From: Mobula hypostoma
Taxonomy: Eukaryota
Direction: 5' to 3'
DNA: 64,000 nucleotides
Assembly (NCBI RefSeq): GCF_963921235.1
Contig: NC_086107.1
Location: 102,984,001-103,048,000, forward strand
In this document: piece after piece, positions 3,265 through 61,807 of the stretch
Numbering within the stretch: the first letter of the stretch is position 1
Layout of the letters: the number at the start of each line of letters is the position of its first letter
Notes under the pieces: model-generated
What the model was told of the DNA's origin: nothing
The model's input: the letters and a program-made list of their open reading frames with translations, nothing else
Database searches by the model: none
Position numbers and translations under genes: made by a program

Positions 3265-3809
3265 CTAGGAGACAAAAAGAAGAGGATAAAACTGAGCAAG
3301 TCACTGTCAGTATGTAAATAGGGTCCCAATATGGAGATCTAATCACCAGTCTGTGCTGCAACAGATCGAGCAGTTAGATAGAAATTAAGAATTCTATCTA
3401 ATCACTGTGTTTTAGAATATCTTATGAGATCAGCACCAGTTCCAAATATCCTCAACCTTGTCCCTTCAGTGAAGCTAGGGTGAAGATACTCGGAACTGAG
3501 TGCTGATCTTATTAGATATTTTAAAACAGGATGATTAGATAGCTCTCTTAATTTCTCATTCAACAAACAATCAGCTGGAGGAACTTTGTAGGCTGAGCAC
3601 CAGCTGTGTGTGAGGGAGTGGGGAGGTGGGTTGTAAGGGACTGTCAGTGTTTGGGTTGAAAGCCTGCACTGGGGTCCTGACATAAAGTGAATTGTTGAAA
3701 TTTGATCCCACCCCCCACCCACCTCCAGTCCCAGATGCTGCTCGACCCACTGAGTCTTTCCAGTAGATCATTATTTGCTCCCGATTCCAACACCTGGAGT
3801 CTATATTTT

Positions 3810-11730: not shown

Positions 11731-11835
11731 CCAGCAACACACACACAAAATGCTGGAGGAACTCAGCAGGTCAGGCAGCATCTATGGAAAAGAATAAACA
11801 GTGATGTTTCAGGCCAAGACCCTTCATCAGGCCTG
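11731..11835 (-). mobile_element. ~105-bp Penelope-derived mini-element with hammerhead ribozyme motif
   Basis: Minus strand CTGATGA-A-GGGT-CTTG-GCCT-GAAAC-ATC (~11803-11830). Flanked by ATAAATTACCA (11720-11730) and ATAAATTATCA (11836-11846). Homologous to the Penelope ends at 50034 and 60530. Confidence 0.7.
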
Positions 11836-31520: not shown

Positions 31521-32784
31521 CATCCTTTGGCCTCAATTTACAGCTGAGTATTCCATTCAAACCCCTTGAACCTACATGATTTGGACCCATATGGCCTCCC
31601 ATAGCTGTGCCTTTGATTTACAAGAATGTGGGGAGACAAAGAAAAAGTTGTTCAATGTATGAACAAGTTCAGCTAAACCTGGGAGGGTGTTCTTTCGGAG
31701 AGAGAGAGAGAGATTGGGTCTTTGTTCAAGGAAGAGATAAGGGCCCCCAGGCCATTCAGCTATAGGATAAGGTGTAGAGGGACCAGACATCCATGGTAAA
31801 GATTAGTCTATTGAGACTATCAAAATTGCGAACTAGCAAAGTGGCAGAGGGTATCAGAGATGTCACAGTGGTCCTGACAAGTGAAGAAAGAATAGAGCTA
31901 TAGAGTTACACAGATCCATCACAACAACAGGCCTCTGACCCACTGAATATCTGCCACCCATTTACACTAATTCTACATTAATCTTATTTGTTTTATTCTG
32001 TCCACATTTCCATCAACTGGTCCCAGACTCTGCCTTTCACCCACATACTGGCAGGAATTTACAGTGGCTAATTAACCTGCCAATCAGCCCCTCGTCTGGA
32101 TTTGGGAGGACACCAGAGCGGCTGGAGGCAACCCACACTGACAGAGGGAGAATGTGCAAAGTCCACACAGACAGCATCTGAGGTCAGGATCAAACCTGGG
32201 TCTCTGGTGCTGTAAGCAGCAGTTCTACAAATCTGTATCACGATCCTACCCTTAAGAGAGTCACAGTAGAAAGAAATATATTCTATGGGTTAAGAATGGG
32301 CTTTTATGATGTGTCTACACAAGCAGTCCTCTGCATGTCGATCCTGGTGAGGAGGTAGAAGTAGATGTGCATAATTGGGGAATGAGGCTGGAGGTTATGG
32401 AGAGATCTCAACAGGAATATAGGTTACTGACTGTTTAGGAGACACCAATGTTCCATGGTATAATACAACTTACCATCATCTTGATGAGGTTACCCATAAA
32501 TAGTTTATATCATTGGCTCTGGAAGCATACATACACAAAAAACCTCTTCTGTAACTTATACCAGAATGATGCCAGCCCAGAGGGTTATCAGTACTGCTTT
32601 CCTCCTTCCCATCTCTCATTTATCCTACATATCCTTCATGAGGTATGATGTTGCCCAGTATGGAAGACAGTATTCAATGGGCTTGACCAAAGCTAAAAAA
32701 AAAAAGGACAACTTCCTCCCCATTGCAACTTGAGATCATGGAAACCACTTCATTAGTCCGTAATGTGCACCTTTGCTCCACTCG

Positions 32785-38490: not shown

Positions 38491-40509
38491 AAACTCCTGT
38501 GTGGGAGCTTTTTGAAAATTATTGCCTCATTTTCAGACCATGGGAACTGCATATGCTGCTTTGGCAGTATTATGCAATTAGCATCAATGCCTGAAGCTGG
38601 GAATAAATCTAAACTTCTAATTTTTGATTGATACAAAATACAATGATAAATCATGGGATTATTTACTTTAGGGATCATGAAAAATTCATTCAATACTTCT
38701 AGCTTACTGTCTTTCAGACAGATCAAAACCAATATGGACATCAAATCATTTCCTACCTTGTTCCATGCTTGGAGCTAAATAAAAAATATTAAATCTAAAA
38801 CCGGAAAGCCCAATTGTCGTCACATTTGCATCTTTGTGTGTCTGTGCGGTATTTTTTTTATTTCTGCTTCATGATGTGTGCAGACATGGTTGGACAGATT
38901 GCCAACATCATTCATTTATTGACAAAAATTTTTTAAAGATAAAGGTCAAGAAGAGACTCTGGCAATAGATTTGTAAAGTTTAAAAAGGTACATTCATTTT
39001 CCAGGATCTAGGCATAATGGCTAAGGTCAGGATGTTTCGTCCATCATTAATTCCACATGCAAAAGTGGCAGTAAGCCATCTTCCAGAATTCCTTTGGTGA
39101 AGGTATTTCAACAGTTTAATCTGGTAGCGTGGTTCAGGATCTGAGCCAACCTACAAAGGAACAGCCGACTTATTTTCAAATTGGATGGGAACTCAAGGTA
39201 GTGGTATTCCCATATTCTTTTTCCTACTTGATAGTAGAGGTCAGGGGCTTGGGAGATGCTGTCATAAAAGTCTGGCTGATAGATGCACTGAATTTTGGAG
39301 ATGTTACACACTGCAAAGGGAGGCGGGGAGGAGATATATCTCTATCAAAGGAGGTGTACGACGATCCTTCCCTCTGCTAGCTTGCAGGTCATCCTTGGGC
39401 AAGGTGTAGCACCTGCTTCACCTCACCCCCACTCCCCTCCCCATCAGGGTCACATGAAGCTAAGGGAGCGGCTGATGCATATCACAAGTCCCCATTGCAA
39501 GGGGGACTCAGCAATTTTTAAATGCTATTGCGCTAGCATTGGTAAGTAGACTCTTTCTTGTTGGACACTGCTATTGCCGGACACTTACATGGTTTGAAAT
39601 GTGAAACACTTATGTATATTTCAATGTCACCAAGGTCTCATTGCACTTTAGACCTTTCCATTTGTGAATGATACTGAGTACTGGGTAATCATCCCCTTGT
39701 GATTTTGTAAATGAAAGGGCTGTAGATCACTGGGCCTAGGGCACTGCCTTGATGGACTCCTATAGTGACATCTTGGCACTGGGATGAATGCCCTCTTGAC
39801 AACCACAACCATCTTCCTTGTGGGAGGTATGACTGAGGTGACTAATGCTTACATGGTGCTCGTTCAGTGGTTTTACCAGGACACCTTGTTGCTAAATGCT
39901 TTGGTGTCAAGGGTAGTCAACTCCCATCTCACCTCAAATCCAAATCTGCAATGAGGTCTGGGGAGGAGAGGTCCTGGCAAAGCCCAAACCATGCATTAGT
40001 GCGCAAAACACAAAATGCTGGCGGGTAGTCAAGTCAGGCAACGTCCACAGAGGGAAATGGAGTCGATGTTTCTGGTCGAGAACCTTACTTGGACTGTCTG
40101 AATCCCGGATGCAGAGTTTCAACTTGAAACAATGACTGTTCTTTTCCTTTCATAGATGCTGCCTAACCTGCCAAGTTCCTCCGGTGTTTTGTGTGTTGCT
40201 CCAGATTCCAACATCTGGAGGTCCTTGTGTCTCCTAGGCATTGGTGAGCAAGTGCTACTTCATAGTAACATGACAGCATTGTTGATAATTGAGAGCAGTT
40301 TTCCATAACGATGGACCAGTGCTGTAACTGTAATAGCTTGTCCGGGATTGCAACAGGCTCTCCAGCACAGAAGAGATGTTGTTTCGACCAATAACCAAAG
40401 ATGCAACATAATAGGTTCAGCAGCCATTTATGTGTACGCTATTTCTTGAACAGATTCTGTTGCTATTTTTTTTTCTCTCAACGTTCCTTTGTCTTAAGCC
40501 ATATTTCAA

Positions 40510-40880
40510 ATACCTCCCAGTGGCCAAACATTTTAATTTCTATTTCCGTTCCAACGTGTTGGTCCATGGCCTCCTCTTGTACCGAGATGAAGCCACCCTC
40601 AGTGTGGAGGGGCAACACCTTATATTCCATCTGGGTAGCCTCCAACCCGATGGCACGAACATCCATTTCTCCTTCCGGTAAACAAATCCACCCCCCCTCT
40701 CTGACCTTTTACTTCCCCCCCTCACCCCACCCTCCAGGTTCCCTCCTCCTTCCCCTTCTCCAATGGTCCACTCTCCTCTCCTATCAGACTCCTTCTCCAG
40801 CCCCTGACCTTCCCCACCCACCTGGCTTCACCTATCACCTTCCAGCTAGTCCTACTTCCCCTCACCCCCCCCCTTTGTAT
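40510..40880 (+). mobile_element. Penelope-like element fragment (GIY-YIG C-terminus)
   Basis: LPVAKHFN...HGLLLYRDEATLSVEGQHLIFHLGSLQPDGTNIHFS, homologous to the 50034 and 60052 copies. Confidence 0.8.
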
Positions 40881-46525: not shown

Positions 46526-48169
46526 AAGTTAGTGCTTTGAGCCATAATGCGCCTGTGCTGGAAGGACTGACTCTTTAGGGTAATTGGTGGAGTGGTTTAT
46601 TGTTGATGCTTTCTGCAGGCACACTTATCCAGATTGCCATTAGGTTTTCCTCCTACTAACAGATTCACATGCTGGGTAGGCTTTGTGCATCGGTAAGTGA
46701 TTGAGTCATTGTAGATTATCCATCTGTGACCTTTTCTTACAGCCAAGTGTTTTCTTTACTGATCAGATCAAGTCACTAATTATTCTCTTTAACTACCTTT
46801 CTCAGGGAATTGTCTGGCTTCAGTTCTGGTGGTGATGTTGGATGACTGACATGTCATTATCAGTGTAGTGATGACATAGCAGTTAGTTACATGACCGGTA
46901 ATCCATGCCCTTGCTCGAATGATTCAGAGGCCAGAGTTAAAATCCTATCATGGCAGGAATCGAAAATCAGTTAATAATCTGGAATAGTTTATATTAAAAA
47001 GGAACTATTCATTAATAATACACACAAATAATATTGATTGTTGTTAAAATAAGCTCTTTCAGGGGTGGAAATCCTGATGTGGCCTACTGTTATTGAGTCT
47101 TAAAACTCTGAAATGGCCACTGAGTATTTTAGCACAATGTAAATAAAGTGGAGTTCCTTTTGCTAAACCGCAGTGATTAGGATTGTTCCAGTTAGTTCAA
47201 GAATCAAGTTGGTGAAGGAATGGCCCTGTACTTCCTACCTGGTGGTAGGTGTGGGAAGATGGTATGGCCCATACGGTGGGGATCTTTGACGACGGATGTT
47301 GCCTTCTTGAGGCATCACCTCCTGTAGATACTACCAATGGTAGAAAGGGTTGTATCTGTGATGTATTGGGCTGTTCACTGTTCTCTGCAGCTTCTTGTGT
47401 TCCTGCACATCTGATGCTTTCAAAAATCCACCTGTGCATGTCGGTTAGAGTGTTTGCTGACAAGCTGAACCTCCTAAGAAAGATTCTGGCGTGCCTTCCT
47501 TGTGATTGCATCGATGTGCTGCGCCCAGGACGGGTATGTTAAAGCTGCTAACTCTCTTTGCCACTCATCTCCCAATGTAGGCTGGCACGTGTGTGCCCTC
47601 CTTCCATAAACACAAGAGAATACTGCAGATGCTGGAAATCCGAGCAATGCACACAAAATGCTGGAGGAACTCAGCAAGTCAGGCAGCATCTATGGAGGAG
47701 AATAAACATTCGACGTTTTGGGCTGAGACCCTTTGGGCCTGCAACCTTGACTATTTATTCCCCTCCGTAGAGATATGGTCCATGAGCAGCAGCCTTATTG
47801 GCATCTGCACTACTGAGCTCTGGTGGAATATAGCATGTCTGAATTTAGAAACATCATTGCCGTTTATTAGATCAAGTGTGAATGTTGTGCAGTTCTTGCT
47901 GCTTCTGGCCAGGGATGGAAAGGACAATTTGCAAAGCAGAGCTCCAGGTGTAAATTAGCTTCCTTCATATGTGTCTGTTTATTTTTTTTTCTAGAAAAAC
48001 TTTAACTAATTATAAAATATTCAATCTGTGTCTTTGGTTAGATGTATTTTGATACACATTAATTTTAGGATTGTTGTTCTTTCCCTGGAGTAGAATCAGT
48101 ATTTAAATTATTTCTCTTCTGTTTTTTTCCTCTGCAACTTGATTTGTTATACAGAATAAAGAATGGTTT

Positions 48170-49020
48170 CCATGTTAAAGTGGCAGAGCATTTCAGATTG
48201 GGTGGTTAAGAAGGCTTAAGGAATGCTTGCTTTTATTATTCGAGGTATTGAGTTCAAAAGTCAAGAAGTTAGGTTGCAACCTTATAGAACTCTGGTTTGG
48301 CTATGGTAATGCATTGCATTACTGTGGGACAGCCAAAACAGTATTGTACACAGTTCTGGTCGCCCCACTATAGGAAGGATGTTGAGGCTTTGGAGAGGTG
48401 CAGAAGAGGAATCAACTCTTCTCGGGCTTCCAGCCAGGTAGAGGTATCGATTTTAACCGTCGTTTCGATGATAAACTCTGCCACCCTCCTCAGGGGTGAA
48501 TAGCAGAGTTTCCTGTTGAAATGTCAGAAAAATTGATACCTATACACAGCTGGAAGCCCAAAAAGAGTTTACTTGTTATATACGCTAGGAAAGCACTAGA
48601 TCCTTTTTCAGTGCAGAAGAGATTTACCAGGATGCTATCATGGGAGGCTGGACAAACTTGGGTTGTTTTCTTTGGAGTGGCAGAGACTGAGGGGGGATCT
48701 GATTATTAGATTATGAGAGGCATCGATAGAGTGGACAGGGAGTATCTGTTTCTCAGGGTTGAAATGTCTAATACAGGTGTACATTGAAGGTGAGAGGGGA
48801 TAGGTTCAAAGGGAATGTGAGGGGTCAGTTTTTTACTCAGAATGGTGGCTGAAATGAGCTGCCTGGTATGGTGGAAGAGACATACATTAAGGCTTTTAAG
48901 AGATTAATATGAGGAAGATAGAGGGATTCATTTTTGTGGGTTTTCAATTTACTTTTTAGCTAGTTTGGTACAACATTGTGGACCAATAGGCCTGTTCCTG
49001 TGCTGTACTCTCCTCTCTAT
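48170..49020 (+). mobile_element. CR1 3' fragment containing a 202-bp fold-back insertion
   Basis: YCTQFWSPHYRKDVEALER...VQKRFTRML, interrupted at 48409-48610. Confidence 0.75.
48409..48610. mobile_element. Fold-back mini-element with degenerate hammerhead motif (second Penelope-like family)
   Basis: 11-bp TSD GTGCAGAAGAG (48398-48408, 48611-48621). Inverted arms ~48414-48481 and ~48503-48569. Minus strand CTGAGGA-G-GGTGGCA-GAGTT-TATCATC-GAAAC-GAC. Confidence 0.65.
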
Positions 49021-50033
49021 TGTGTAAATTATGGCCTTTCATATGCTCAATATTCATTATGAGTTTCATAAATATTTTGTTGTCAAGCTCCTTGACTAAA
49101 TGCCATATTATCTCTTCAGAAACTTGGTGCATGACTGGCTTTACAGTAGAGGCAGTTGGCCATGTTACAAACTGGGCGTGAGGCTGTAAACTAATAACTG
49201 AGGTGATTCCAAGGGCAGAGAGTAATGCAAGATTTTCCTCTCCCTCTCACACACTAACTCACTGCAGTTTTATAGATCAAGAAACCTGAACAACCTGGAG
49301 GTCAAATGTACCTGTTGTAATTATGTCTCTGCCTAAACTTTGTCAAATGACTTGTCTTTTTTCCCTTCTGCCATTCAATTGAATAGAGTGTGAGAGCCTG
49401 GAATGTAAATGACAGAATAGGTCACAGCTACTTGAGAGACTCACTGGGAGTTGAACAGGGTGTTATGTGTAATTTTATATTTATATTTGATTCTCTAAAA
49501 TTTTAAAATTTTTTTAGAGCTGGGAGTACCACTTTGATTTAATTTCTTTAAAATTGGTTAAAATGTTGAAAGCAATTCAAAATTTCTGAATTTAAAGACA
49601 AAATATGGAAGCTGACTGCTCCCCACCTTATTACAAAAAGTGGCTTTGCAGGTGGTCATCAAAGCCCTTTGGTCCCAGAGGCAGTAAGTTCCCATTATTT
49701 AAAAATCTGCTTGCAGAGGATATTGTGAATATCAGCTTGCTTCTGCCTTCTGTCTGATATGACCTTGTGCCAAAGAAATGGTTCCATGGAAACTATGCCT
49801 TCTTTCCAACTCTGCCAAGGAAAGGAGAGGGATTACAATCCATCTGATATTATTCCATGTGATCCATCGATAGACTCTTTATTTACCTAATGTTGCCTTG
49901 CCTCTGTTACCTTGCCTAACTGTTAATGAGTAAGACTGGAGACTGAGACATAAGAGACTGCATGCTGTTGTCTGGAGCCAAACAATCTGCCATAGGAAGT
50001 CGGCAGGTAGAAACAAAAGGATGTTCATCAGGT

Positions 50034-51363
50034 AACACACATAAAAGTTGCTGGTGAACGCAGCAGGCCAGGCAGCATCTCTAGGAAGAGGTGCAGTCGA
50101 CGTTTCAGGCCGAGGCCCTTCATCAGGACTAACTGAAGGAAGAGTGAGTAAGGGATTTGAAAGTGGGAGGGGGAGGGGGAGATGCAAAATGATGGGAGAA
50201 GACAGGAGGGGGAGGGATGGAGCCGAGAGCTGGACAGGTGATAGGCAAAAGGGATACGAGAGGATCATGGGACAGGAGGTCCGGGAAGAAAGACAAGGTG
50301 GGGGGGGGGAAACCCAGAGGATGGGCAAGGGGTATATTCAGAGGGACAGAGAGAGAAAAAGGAGAGTGAGAGAAAGAATGTGTGCATAAAAATAAGTAAC
50401 AGATGGGGTACGAGGGGGAGGTGGGGCATTAGCGGAAGTTAGAGAAGTCGATGTTCATGCCATCAGGCTGGAGGCTACCCAGACGGAATATAAGGTGTTG
50501 TTCCTCCAACCTGAGTGTGGCTTCATCTTTACAGTAGAGGAGGCCGTGGATAGACATGTCAGAATGGGAATGGGATGTGAAATTAAAATGTGTAGCCACT
50601 GGGAGATCCTGCTTTCTCTGGCGGACAGAGCGTAGGTGTTCAGCAAAGCGGTCTCCCAGTCTGCATCAGGTCTCGCCAATATATAAAAGGTCACATCGGG
50701 AGCACCGGACGCAGTATATCACCCCAGCCGACTCACAGATGAAGTGTTGCCTCACCTGGAAGGACTGTTTGGGCCCTGAATTCCACATCCCATTCCCATT
50801 CTGACATGTCTATCCACGGCCTCCTCTACTGTAAAGATGAAGCCACACTCAGATTGGAGGAACAACACCTTATATTCCGTCTGGGTAGCCTCCAGCCTGA
50901 TGGCATGAACATCGACTTCTCTAACTTCCGCTAATGCCCACCTCCCCCTCGTACCCCATCTGTTACTTATTTTTATACACACATTCTTTCTCTCACTCTC
51001 CTTTTTCTCTCTCTGTCCCTCTGAATATACCCCTTGCCCATCCTCTGGGTTCCCCCCCCCCACCTTGTCTTTCTTCCCGGACCTCCTGTCCCATGATCCT
51101 CTCGTATCCCTTTTGCCCATCACCTGTCCAGCTCTTGGCTCCATCCCTCCCCCTCCTGTCTTCTCCTATCATTTTGGATCTCCCCCTCCCCCTCCCACTT
51201 TCAAATCTCTTACTAACTCTTCCTTCAGTTAGTCCTGACAAAGGGTCTCGGCCTGAAACGTCAACTGCACCTCTTCCTAGAGATGCTGCCTGGCCTGCTG
51301 CGTTCACCAGCAACTTTTATGTGTGTTGCTTGAATTTCCAGCATCTGCAGAATTCCTGTTGTT
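50034..51363. mobile_element. Penelope-like element in inverted (fold-back) configuration
   Basis: Near-identical ~550-bp inverted arms (50034-50584 and 50779-51327). The minus strand encodes the GIY-YIG region VIYCVRCSRCDLLYIGET*CRLGDRFAEH...LEEQHLIFRLGSLQPDGMN. 14-bp TSD GATGTTCATCAGGT (50020-50033, 51364-51377). Confidence 0.9.
50095..50130 (-). ncRNA. Minimal type-I hammerhead ribozyme motif (intact core)
   Basis: AGUC-CUGAUGA-A-GGGC-CUCG-GCCU-GAAAC-GUC-GACU: stem I AGUC/GACU, conserved CUGANGA and GAAA boxes, 4-bp stem II, palindromic ACGU stem III and GUC cleavage triplet. Confidence 0.75.
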
Positions 51364-58442: not shown

Positions 58443-58535
58443 GATCTGAATGAAGAAGTTTATAATTTCTTGGCAACGGCAGCTGCGAAGTATGGGGTCG
58501 GCTTTTGGAAACCTGGTTCTGGCATCATCCATCAG
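58443..58535 (+). CDS. ACO2: ACO2 exon 4: [31 protein letters not shown]
   Basis: Acceptor CTTTGTAG|GAT and donor CAG|GTAAAG, 93 nt. PGSGIIHQ aconitase motif. Confidence 0.97.
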
Positions 58536-59129
58536 GTAAAGAATGAAATCTCATTTCCAGCTCTCACTTTGAAGTCTGCCTTCACCTCCCTGTCCCCGGG
58601 GAGCAGCACATTAATTATCAGCTACTGTTTCCTATTGCACAAGCAAACAAAGCCTAAAGGACTCAGTGAGATTCATCTTTATTTTCCACTCTTTCCGAAC
58701 ATAACCATGAGCGGAACCGATGACAAAACAAATCCCACTTTGATTGAAATGCCTCCTCCCCACTCCAAACATAAAACAGCCAGCACGACACACCAGGGCA
58801 TTGCTGACTCTTGTACACACGTAAGCTACAGGCAGCCAGCACTTGGTCCTTACTAAATGCCGTTTTATAAAAGAGCATGTAGCTGTTACAGATTGGATGT
58901 TGTCACTGCAAGGCAAGACTGAATAGAGTGCATCAAAGGCATCTTTGATCTCAGCAGGTGAAAGGTGGCATCTACTCGGCAGTGTTGTCCCTGCCATCCC
59001 CTTTATTTAACAACTTCTCATTTATTCTTGCTACCCCTGGAGGCTGCACACAGGAGTTCTACTTTGCTTTGGCCTTGTGCCTTTGCAGAGCAATACCGAC
59101 CCAACTGGCTGTTTGTACCGTCTGTCTGT

Positions 59130-59580
59130 CTGTCTAGGTACCATATCCGATGCGGACTTTGGTGACCATGGTTTTCCATATAGATCTATCCTTTGTTTTT
59201 TGGGTGACTTCCATTTCCTCGATGTGTAGCCACCTGGCTATGCTTTTGTTGCACATAAGCCGAGGTCTTCCTCTAGGTTTGCTCCCCTCAATCTTTCCAG
59301 AGAGTATGAGTTTTTCTAGTTCATCTTTCTGCATGATGAGTCCGAGGAATCTGAGTTGTCTTTCTGTTATCCTGACGAAGGGTCTCGGCCCGAAACGTCG
59401 ACTGTACCTCTTCCTAGAGATGCTGCCTGGCCTGCTGTGCTCACCAGCAACTTTGATGTGTGTTGCTTGTCTTTCTCTAATTGTTGGTATGAGTGATCGA
59501 ACTGCTTGGGCTCTTCTGAGAACTTCTTCATTTGATGTGTGTGTGGTCTATGATATTTTTAACATTCTCCTGTAGAAGAT
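59130..59580 (-). mobile_element. RTE LINE 3' fragment interrupted by an HHR mini-element
   Basis: Removing 59366-59476 restores the minus-strand frame SNEEVLRRAQAVRSLIPTIRERQ|LRFLGLIMQKDELEKLILSGKIEGSKPRGRPR. Confidence 0.85.
59366..59466 (+). mobile_element. 101-bp Penelope-derived mini-element with hammerhead core
   Basis: CTGACGA-A-GGGT-CTCG-GCCC-GAAAC-GTC-GACT (59372-59403). Perfect 10-bp TSD TTGTCTTTCT (59356-59365, 59467-59476). Confidence 0.85.
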
Positions 59581-59991
59581 TGCATCAACTTCTAGAACTC
59601 AAATTTCAGTTTACCAAACTAAACATTTCCAATTACAGCCCTATGATGGTAAAACTATTTGCTGTTAAATGTTACGGCAAGGGACCCACTCATTCCCCAG
59701 TCGAACTGTGGTGTAGTGACCAAGAATGTCAGAGTACACACCAAATACTCCACTTTGCAAGGCTCTGGGGTGCAAGTGCACAGTCTGATCAGTTTAACAT
59801 TCAACTATTTGTTTTTATTAATAGAATATTTCAGCACTTTCATCTTGTACACAATCTGTAGAGTAATCCAGAAATGACTGGCAACACCTACTGAGCTGAG
59901 TGTGACAGCTCGAGCTTGCTTTTGTTTCTATCTGGAGTGACTTCATTTTCTTATCCTTCCATGTGATCCAATTACAATCAGGACCTGGCTT

Positions 59992-60667
59992 CCACGGCCT
60001 CCTCCACTGTAAAGATGAAGCCCACGGCCTCCTCTACTGTAAAGATGAAGCATGATCTCCCAGTGGCCACACATTTTAATTCCACATCCCATTCCCATTC
60101 TGATATCCACGGCCTCCTCTACTGTAAAGATGAAGCCACACTCAGGTTGGAGGACCAACACCTTATATTCCATCTGGGTAGCCTCCAACCTGATGGCATG
60201 AATATTGACTTCTCTAACTTCCACTAATGCCCCACCTCCCCCTCGTACCCCATCCGTTATTTATTTATATACACACATTCTTTTTCTCTCTCTCCTTTTT
60301 CTCCCTCTGTCCCCCTCACTATACCCCTTGCCTATCCTCTGGGCTTCCCCCCCCTCCCCCTTTTCCTTCTCTCTGGGCCTCCTGTCCCATGATCCCCTCA
60401 TATCCCTTTTGCCAATCAACTGTCCAGCTCTTGGCTCCATCCCTCCCGCTCCTGTCTTCTCCTATCATTTCGGATCTCCCCCTCCCCCTCCCACTTTCAA
60501 ATCTCTTACTAGCTCTTCTTTCAGTTAGTCCTGACGAAGCGTCTCGGCCCAAAACGTCGACTGTACCTCTTCCTAGAGATGCTGCCTGGCCTGCTGTGTT
60601 CACCAGCAACTTTGATGTGTGTTGCTTGAATTTCCAGCATCTGCAGATTTCCTCGTGTTTGCGTTCC
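59992..60667 (+). mobile_element. Penelope-like element 3' portion (GIY-YIG tail plus terminal repeat with mutated HHR)
   Basis: DLPVATHFNSTSHSHSDIHGLLYCKDEATLRLEDQHLIFHLGSLQPDGMNIDFSNFH*. HHR at 60527-60562 with GAAA changed to AAAA. Confidence 0.88.
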
Positions 60668-61807
60668 TATTCTCCCCTCGATCCAGTGAATCTTGCCCAA
60701 GTCTTGCCTGATCTGGCTTCATTGATTTTAATATCCTGAACGGCCAAAACGTTTCATTCATGTCAGTTTTGAGATTTTGAGTGAAGCGCAGACACACTTG
60801 TGCTTCCACAGGATTCTTGGCGTCCTGAAGAGTCTGCTCAGTTTGAAGGTAATGCTCTTTAACTCTAGCCAGCGGTAGTTTGGGTTTAGAGACTGAGAAA
60901 AGCAGCACGGTAGGTAGCACAGTGGTTAGCATAAGGCTATTACGATGACAGCCATAAGGTGGGTGTTCAATGCCCACCGTAGTCTGTAAGGAGCTTGAAC
61001 GTTTTTCCATTGACCACTTCGGTCTCCTCCAGGTTCTCCCACTTCCTCCCGCGTTCCAGAGTTGTGGCCCCTGGAAGTGCGGCGACAGTTGCGGGCTGTC
61101 CCTCCTAATCCTCGCTGATTTGATTTAGCGCTAACGGCACATTTCACAATACATTTGACAAATAAAGCTCATATTTCTGATCTTTATTTTCTTCCTAATG
61201 AAATTACAAAAAAAAACTCTTGCTGAGTCATTGTTTGGGTACTGTATGCAGTTTTGGGTAGCACATTATGAAAAATATTATCTTAAACTTCAAGAATGAA
61301 GGAGGCCTACTAGGTCGATACCACAAATGAGGGCTTATGTGAGTTTATGCTAGTTGAAGAGTTAATGGAAACTATTACAATGATCCAGGGCAGTTGTAGA
61401 ATTAACGGAGAGAGTTTTTTTGGGGGGTGGGGTGGAGTCTGTACTGTTAGCTTATGGTCTGTGCGATAGATTGAGCTCACAAGAAATTGTTTTCTTGCCG
61501 TCAGTGCTTGGGACCATGATGTTTACCTGTATAGATAACCAATGATTTCATATATGTGCAGCTTGCATGAGCTACAATAGAGAAATCACAAACATGAAAA
61601 AATCTTCTGCAACTTGTGTTTCTTTGGTTTTATGGTGTTGTTCAATAGTCCACCAGGACTCTAGCTTCATGTACTAAGATACAGGAAGGTGAGCTACTCT
61701 TTTAGAAATTCTTCGCAGTCTACTCCAATAATTTGCATGAGGAGACTAAACGTATCTATGTTCCCCAATGCCGGGTCATCCAATATTTCCATCCTGTCCT
61801 TGAAATC

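Follow-up and report, generated by a model that had tools for sequence, protein, structure and literature searches.

Is a 101-bp sequence that carries the core of a hammerhead ribozyme, and that lies inside the remains of a LINE, a mobile unit in its own right or the residue of something larger? The earlier note on this DNA read it as a discrete non-coding element. We analyzed the locus within its window (the whole stretch of DNA under study, 64 kb), and we conclude that the insert is likely a dead, prematurely ended copy of a Penelope-like element (PLE) and not an independent mini-element. The insertion and its target are made up as follows.

59356..59365, plus strand: left copy of the target-site duplication (TSD), 10 bp, exact; possibly extending to 59370 as a 15-bp TSD with 2 mismatches
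59366..59466, plus strand: Penelope-like terminal fragment with a tail-less 3′ end, 101 bp; compared with long copies, it lacks one G close to the 5′ junction
59467..59476, plus strand: right TSD copy; its opening TTG is also the start of the element's tail
59115..59600, minus strand: 5′-truncated dead 3′ fragment of a LINE, RTE-like, the target of the insert; ends approximate; multi-copy depth

The sequence TTGTCTTTCT stands at both 59356-59365 and 59467-59476, and the description of a 101-bp insert (59366-59466) within a perfect 10-bp TSD is borne out. Since exact 10-mer repeats spaced 100-120 bp apart start at just 6 places in the 64-kb window, and since the LINE frame is restored by excision, the pair does not arise by chance. 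Indeed, when the insert and one TSD copy are removed, the minus strand again reads ...IRERQLRFLG..., as had been claimed. Other insertions of the family in the window have TSDs of 10-14 bp. The boundaries had also been called unambiguous; this holds for the net length but not for the exact ends, given microhomology at both junctions and a TSD that is possibly 15 bp. Six of the seven bases at 59359-59365, in the left TSD, are those of the element's upstream sequence, a match with a window frequency of 0.0026 (0.26% of positions), and the G missing at the 5′ junction belongs to helix I. The alternative fit is a TSD of 15 bp with 2 mismatches; the empty site in one contig of a LINE paralog (run X8) has the last five letters of the left TSD copy. 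Judged from the letters themselves, the 5′ joint is placed within a patch of similarity between target and element whether the TSD is 10 or 15 bp. The 3′ junction has a 3-nt match to the target, whereas the enzyme of the anole element is described as priming without homology (PMC11167929).

A stop codon lies upstream in the LINE frame on the minus strand, which makes the target a dead fragment. We take this LINE to be of the RTE type. Pfam returned one sub-threshold, unrelated match on the fragment and left the RTE label without confirmation, a homolog search with the fragment gave no matches, and the 64-kb window contains no paralog of it elsewhere. An Atlas search pointed to an "endonuclease-reverse transcriptase" cluster at 0.95, which serves as a lead only. 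Of the claimed insertion into an RTE open reading frame (ORF), then, the interruption of a LINE frame stands, but the frame is that of a dead fragment with a stop, and its assignment to RTE is without confirmation from Pfam or homologs. Together, the insert and one TSD copy amount to 111 bp (37 codons) without a stop in the frame of the LINE (59356-59476, minus strand); this is probably a coincidence, because the LINE fragment is truncated and has the upstream stop.

Sequence comparison identifies the insert as the terminal ~100 bases of a Penelope-like element that is both young and very abundant, and for which these copies are informative:

60042..60661, plus strand: long sister copy with the C-terminal end of a GIY-YIG ORF, a ~300-bp pyrimidine-rich spacer, the hammerhead and the tail
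50034..51363, unstranded: head-to-head pair of long copies with one 14-bp TSD; tail on one arm only
11731..11835, minus strand: second ~100-bp mini, beginning 5 nt upstream of the hammerhead core; belongs to an older subfamily; TSD of 11 bp with one mismatch

Penelope origin was correctly recognized in the earlier note: the insert matches the 3′ terminus of an element that codes for a GIY-YIG endonuclease. Three long copies match it (60042-60661, 50777-51363 and 50032-50778), with 3 differences in 94 bases for the copy at 60529-60622 and 7 for each of the others; blastn gives a 94% match between the insert and a long copy. The long copy at 60042 is 1.1 kb away from the insert, and its hammerhead has two core/helix mutations. 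In the minus arm of the pair at 50034-51363, Pfam detects a GIY-YIG domain that contains a stop; the match (E 2.3e-4) scores 21.9 bits, slightly short of the cut-off at 22.6. The layout of the long copies is the endonuclease C terminus, ~300 bp of pyrimidine-rich spacer, the hammerhead, ~67 nt, and an optional tail of roughly 35-38 nt. This tail is seen at 51363 and 60661; it is not in the insert, nor at 50034 and 11731. The tail end is a major site of loose contig ends in four runs (539, 416, 258 and 71+73 contigs). No reverse transcriptase (RT)-coding part of the element was recovered from the 64-kb window. In run X3, 229,384 of 29.7 million contigs match a 1.8-kb stretch, a figure to which the LINE contributes and which should not be read as a copy number. 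At the 5′ end of the long copy (59963-60051), 30 bp are duplicated in tandem and a piece of coding sequence is displaced, which suggests template slips at the 5′ junction.

The 3′ end of the insert can be read against the anole element, in which reverse transcription begins at two internal sites and these bound an optional tail of 30-40 bp (PMC11167929). Since the start sites delimit the tail in that element, the fixed 3′ end of the insert corresponds to the element's normal tail-less end. According to the same source, the dominant substrate is unprocessed RNA, the minimal RNA reaches past the RT start sites, and hammerhead mutants still insert. By analogy, a tail-less 101-mer would be without the signal needed to move again. 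Truncated tail-less PLE insertions and solo pLTRs are described in PMC3846280, PMC8557442 and PMC11167929. Like them, the insert is the terminal repeat of a GIY-YIG element with a ~10-bp TSD; absence of the 30-40-bp tail, 5′ microhomology and head-to-head pairs with a one-sided tail are shared as well. Unlike them, the insert is just ~100 bp, and the outer edge of helix I seems to be where the 5′ ends gather. The insert itself is thus ordinary, being a truncated tail-less PLE insertion or a solo terminal repeat.

We then considered the ribozyme motif, which was called by motif matching to the definition of minimal hammerheads in PMC4209133.

59367..59404, plus strand: type-I hammerhead motif of the minimal kind, with its core beginning at 59372 and GGGU/GCCC as helix II; without helix III (palindromic ACGU)

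The core parses as CUGACGA-A-GGGU-CUCG-GCCC-GAAA-CG-UC from 59372, 6 nt into the insert, and the predicted cut falls after 59399, with 34 nt of the insert before it and 67 nt downstream. This agrees with the description of an intact core about 6 nt from the start followed by ~65 nt. The insert has the conserved core, helix II and the palindromic junction without helix III, and it resembles the minimal hammerheads of metazoan PLEs in its full core, its one unpaired base before helix II, its palindromic ACGU and its location in a terminal repeat (PMC4209133). It differs in helix II, which has 4 bp versus 7-8 bp in the Schistosoma motif of that paper, and in helix I, where 4-5 bp are expected of a minimal hammerhead and the insert has 2 bp, followed by two mismatches. 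The copy at 50126 has 5 bp there, and the reduction of stem I to ~2 bp had been noted correctly. The energy of the target hammerhead fold is -0.6 kcal/mol for the insert versus -11.5 kcal/mol for the copy at 50126. The insert shows no special folding stability (z 0.39), and its minimum-energy fold is not the hammerhead. A check against hammerhead models had been proposed: no Rfam hammerhead family matched the insert, neither at the gathering score nor at E up to 10. This copy has a broken helix I and no tandem partner hammerhead, and is predicted not to cleave; in PMC4209133, single minimal hammerheads are reported without cleavage in vitro, and dimers with low cleavage. A ribozyme cut as the origin of the insert's 5′ end is ruled out, as the predicted cut is internal. 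A CTGANGA...GAAAC spacing match also occurs at 48493 (minus strand), outside the Penelope-like family.

Because the predicted cut lies 34 nt inside it, the insert is not a ribozyme-processed monomer. The same fact bears on a retrozyme origin, in which RNA excised by the hammerhead is circularized and reverse transcribed. Animal retrozymes have been proposed to stem from PLE terminal repeats (bioRxiv 10.64898/2026.07.22.740005), and like retrozymes (PMC7229834 and the same preprint) the insert is non-coding, bears a hammerhead, is related to a PLE terminal repeat and has a TSD of >4 bp. Retrozymes, however, are tandem, canonical and 150-450 bp long (PMC7229834), while the insert is a single unit of 101 bp with a minimal motif. 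TRF over 58800-61000 found no tandem array covering it. Its 3′ end is the tail-less PLE end, its ends are set by the PLE RT start site, and it has no lineage of its own in the window. With single minimal hammerheads reported as uncleaved in vitro (PMC4209133), we regard a retrozyme monomer as very improbable. Pattern scans of metagenome, genome and viral contigs returned 0 loci, with part of the scans using a pattern that fits the older subfamily only.

If the insert belonged to a discrete ~100-nt non-coding element with its own source copies, mobilized in trans by Penelope machinery, then the short copies should share a history. A recurrent size class with TSDs would suit such an element; in a rotifer, pLTR sequence was enough for trans-mobilization (PMC3846280), and putatively non-autonomous PLE derivatives are known (PMC8557442). 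The tree built on a 99-column core nevertheless groups the insert with three young long copies (support 99/99), and a single clade of the three single minis is rejected (p-AU 4e-43; 3 versus 7 rows, for 10 arms from the window). The insert diverges by 3% from a long copy and by 26-29% from the other two minis, and the starts are staggered. By analogy with the anole enzyme, which needs sequence 3′ of the RT start site (PMC11167929), the insert would also be short of a required signal. Since the minis fall into different subfamilies, short copies appear to arise repeatedly from whichever subfamily is active. A trans-mobilized unit is therefore unlikely and, in view of the minis' scattered placement, the normal tail-less 3′ end and the single-unit structure, the claim is not supported. 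Several separate mini families are possible, the sample from one window being small.

Short copies are found elsewhere in the window, including this pair:

39993..40251, unstranded: old head-to-head pair of short arms; TSD of 14 bp with two mismatches; the start of each arm is close to the 5′ edge of the hammerhead

Profiling of the terminal region yielded 15 arms in the window, and one more at 3731-3802 makes 16. When placed by eye, 7 of the 16 have their start within -10 to +5 of the hammerhead core (the insert, 11835, 61911, both arms at 40100, 47736 and 34610). A TSD supports two of these starts, inverted junctions three, and loss of homology alone two. The others comprise four long arms (-460, -494, -518 and -652), one arm that starts at about -17 to -28 and four that start further 3′ or are unplaceable; not one of the 16 starts between -28 and -460. 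The nhmmer boundaries differ from those set by eye by up to ~15 nt, and the starts of the minis, which gather at -8 to +5, are spread over several positions and made less sharp by microhomology. The excess at the edge has a binomial P of 3e-8 to 6e-4 under three smooth null models, and a cautious count of 5/12 gives 4e-6 to 5e-3; both ranges are uncorrected, with a bin picked after seeing the data and with paired arms that are not independent. More old head-to-head short pairs occur at 47607-47790, where the turn lies within the hammerhead helix II region, and at 3563-3802. The starts at 32762, 40512, 50777 and 60042 (three long arms and one ORF fragment) fall within 58 nt of each other, at -460 to -518, in the part that codes for the endonuclease C terminus; this is possibly a second preferred 5′ end or a transcription start.

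Plain random 5′ truncation would produce short copies as well, with the apparent cluster an artefact of a poorly conserved pyrimidine spacer. Most PLE insertions are 5′-truncated (bioRxiv 10.64898/2026.07.22.740005), and the spacer does vary among subfamilies. Furthermore, the pile of loose contig ends before 59370, the largest among the sites listed in all four runs (798, 632, 557 and 139 contigs), is inflated and fits a smooth background too, because it pools about 10-20 positions and older subfamilies. Starts bounded by a TSD or by an inverted junction do lie at the edge, however, the binomial P for the excess is at most 5e-3, and the upstream pyrimidine fraction is 0.42-0.62 in the 7 edge-starting arms versus 0.80-0.89 in the 4 long arms. 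We consider random truncation improbable. The ~100-bp size class is probably recurrent, and the stop zone at the 5′ edge of the hammerhead is probably real. In the literature searched, which was largely without subscription papers, we found nothing on such a gathering of 5′ ends at the edge of the hammerhead.

These data suggest that the element's own enzyme made the insert, likely in a single round of copying from the element's RNA, and that the insert is likely unable to move again. The reading that best accommodates them, to which we give slightly better than an even chance, is nicking, tail-less priming, synthesis through an uncleaved hammerhead, a premature end past helix I and sealing by microhomology. 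The GIY-YIG endonuclease would make staggered nicks, 10-15 nt apart, in the dead LINE fragment. Reverse transcription would then start at the internal tail-less site, as it does in vitro for the anole element. The cDNA would run through the uncleaved hammerhead and end a few to ~14 nt beyond helix I, the zone where copies of several subfamilies tend to end. Finally, the cDNA end would anneal to the target overhang through the 6-of-7-base match and be sealed, with one base of helix I lost or replaced. Microhomology-mediated 5′ joining is reported for a rotifer PLE (PMC3846280). Against the microhomology step, 5′ microhomology is not clear for the mini at 11731. With a 15-bp TSD, the start of the insert would fall on the AG boundary itself, which suits a model with an RNA end there better.

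Such an RNA end could be the 5′ end of the transcript. If transcripts began, or were processed, at the edge of helix I, the enzyme would prime at the 5′-proximal copy of its internal start site and reach the template's end after ~100 nt, leaving a defined solo pseudo-LTR; the size class would be discrete and yet a by-product in cis. Initiator-like motifs are present at -8 to -4 in 4/4 long copies examined, older minis begin at -4 to -5, and the 5′ ends in the window look bimodal. In the anole element, RT start sites fall within RNA of the pLTR-ORF junction (PMC11167929), and among rotifer solo pLTRs some frame unrelated DNA inside TSDs (PMC3846280). The initiator evidence is weak, however, because YYANWYY occurs at 1.2% of window positions. 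The microhomology of the insert implies cDNA to about -14, beyond the proposed end, and in the D. virilis and Chlamys elements the start site is upstream of a 5′-leader intron (PMC8557442). An alternative candidate start lies at -460 to -518, where three of the four long arms and one ORF fragment have their 5′ ends. On balance, run-off at an RNA 5′ end seems to us doubtful.

Returning to premature termination past helix I, the sequence just outside that helix offers a candidate cause.

60508..60528, plus strand: predicted splice-acceptor-like motif (branch-point-like sequence, pyrimidine tract and AG) immediately outside helix I on its 5′ side in long copies; shares bases with an initiator-like motif

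An acceptor-like motif directly precedes helix I at 51209-51233 and at 60505-60529, and a branch-like TACTAAC precedes it in one copy. The outer end of helix I, the acceptor-like motif and the initiator-like motif thus coincide at the stop edge. In D. virilis the 3′ end of an intron maps to the 5′ end of helix I (PMC4209133), and a 5′-leader intron is common to the D. virilis and Chlamys elements, with the start site upstream of it (PMC8557442). The D. virilis intron end and the 5′-leader intron of the Chlamys element make an acceptor the preferred cause of the stop zone. It is unproven, since no GT..AG joint across the spacer was found among 15 of 539 contig joints and since the young subfamily has no clear donor at the stop codon. 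In an older copy (40670-40685), a donor-like GTAA is present where the ORF stops; the young copies are without it. We rejected the idea that the minis are spliced copies, as their upstream flanks are, by eye, unlike the coding end and the same 15 of 539 joints showed no GT..AG. Snap-back of the cDNA at helix I as the cause of the stop is likewise unsupported for the insert, because the DNA folds of the young copies are weak: their last 50 nt fold with -2.9 kcal/mol and helix I unformed, as against -8.4 kcal/mol for the older mini.

Most likely, then, the stop zone reflects an acceptor-like boundary 5′ of helix I and not ribozyme cleavage, although this cause is speculative. A protein or branch-point roadblock on unspliced RNA might halt the enzyme there, or the first pyrimidine tract might allow easy annealing. 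Tentatively, and with a good deal less confidence than we have in the sequence of steps above, we propose that an RNA boundary at the outer edge of helix I, either a transcription start or a spliceosomal 3′ acceptor, fixes the ~100-bp class, with the enzyme priming internally and stopping there.

The age of the insertion can be approached through related genomes. A 1,841-nt contig of organism C (run X9) matches 58951-59085 and 59591-59989, with 59 letters between the two matches versus 505 in the window. Most simply, on this alignment, the LINE fragment and the insert arrived later; a deletion in organism C is the alternative. A check for empty orthologous sites had been suggested earlier, and it comes out in part: the insert is absent from the organism C contig, but so is the whole LINE fragment. 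The match of this contig ends where the long Penelope copy begins (59989 onward), with 330 letters remaining, which suggests that the long copy at ~60042 may also be absent in organism C. Contigs of organism B run from unique flank into the LINE fragment at both of its ends. By translation, an exon lies at about 58445-58536, upstream of the LINE/insert region; we take its product to be mitochondrial aconitase. The insert and the long copy are in sense orientation downstream of this exon, presumably in its intron.

The insert counts as a single observation on the way Penelope-like elements terminate cDNA synthesis, and PMC11167929 lists this step among those still awaiting validation. If an RNA boundary at helix I does set the short class, the minis of several subfamilies record the start or splice point of PLE RNA, and they could seed retrozyme-like derivatives. 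If the stop zone holds genome-wide, this abundant family would let the functional 5′ boundary of the RNA be mapped from DNA alone, and whether minimal hammerheads have any role in integration would become testable too.
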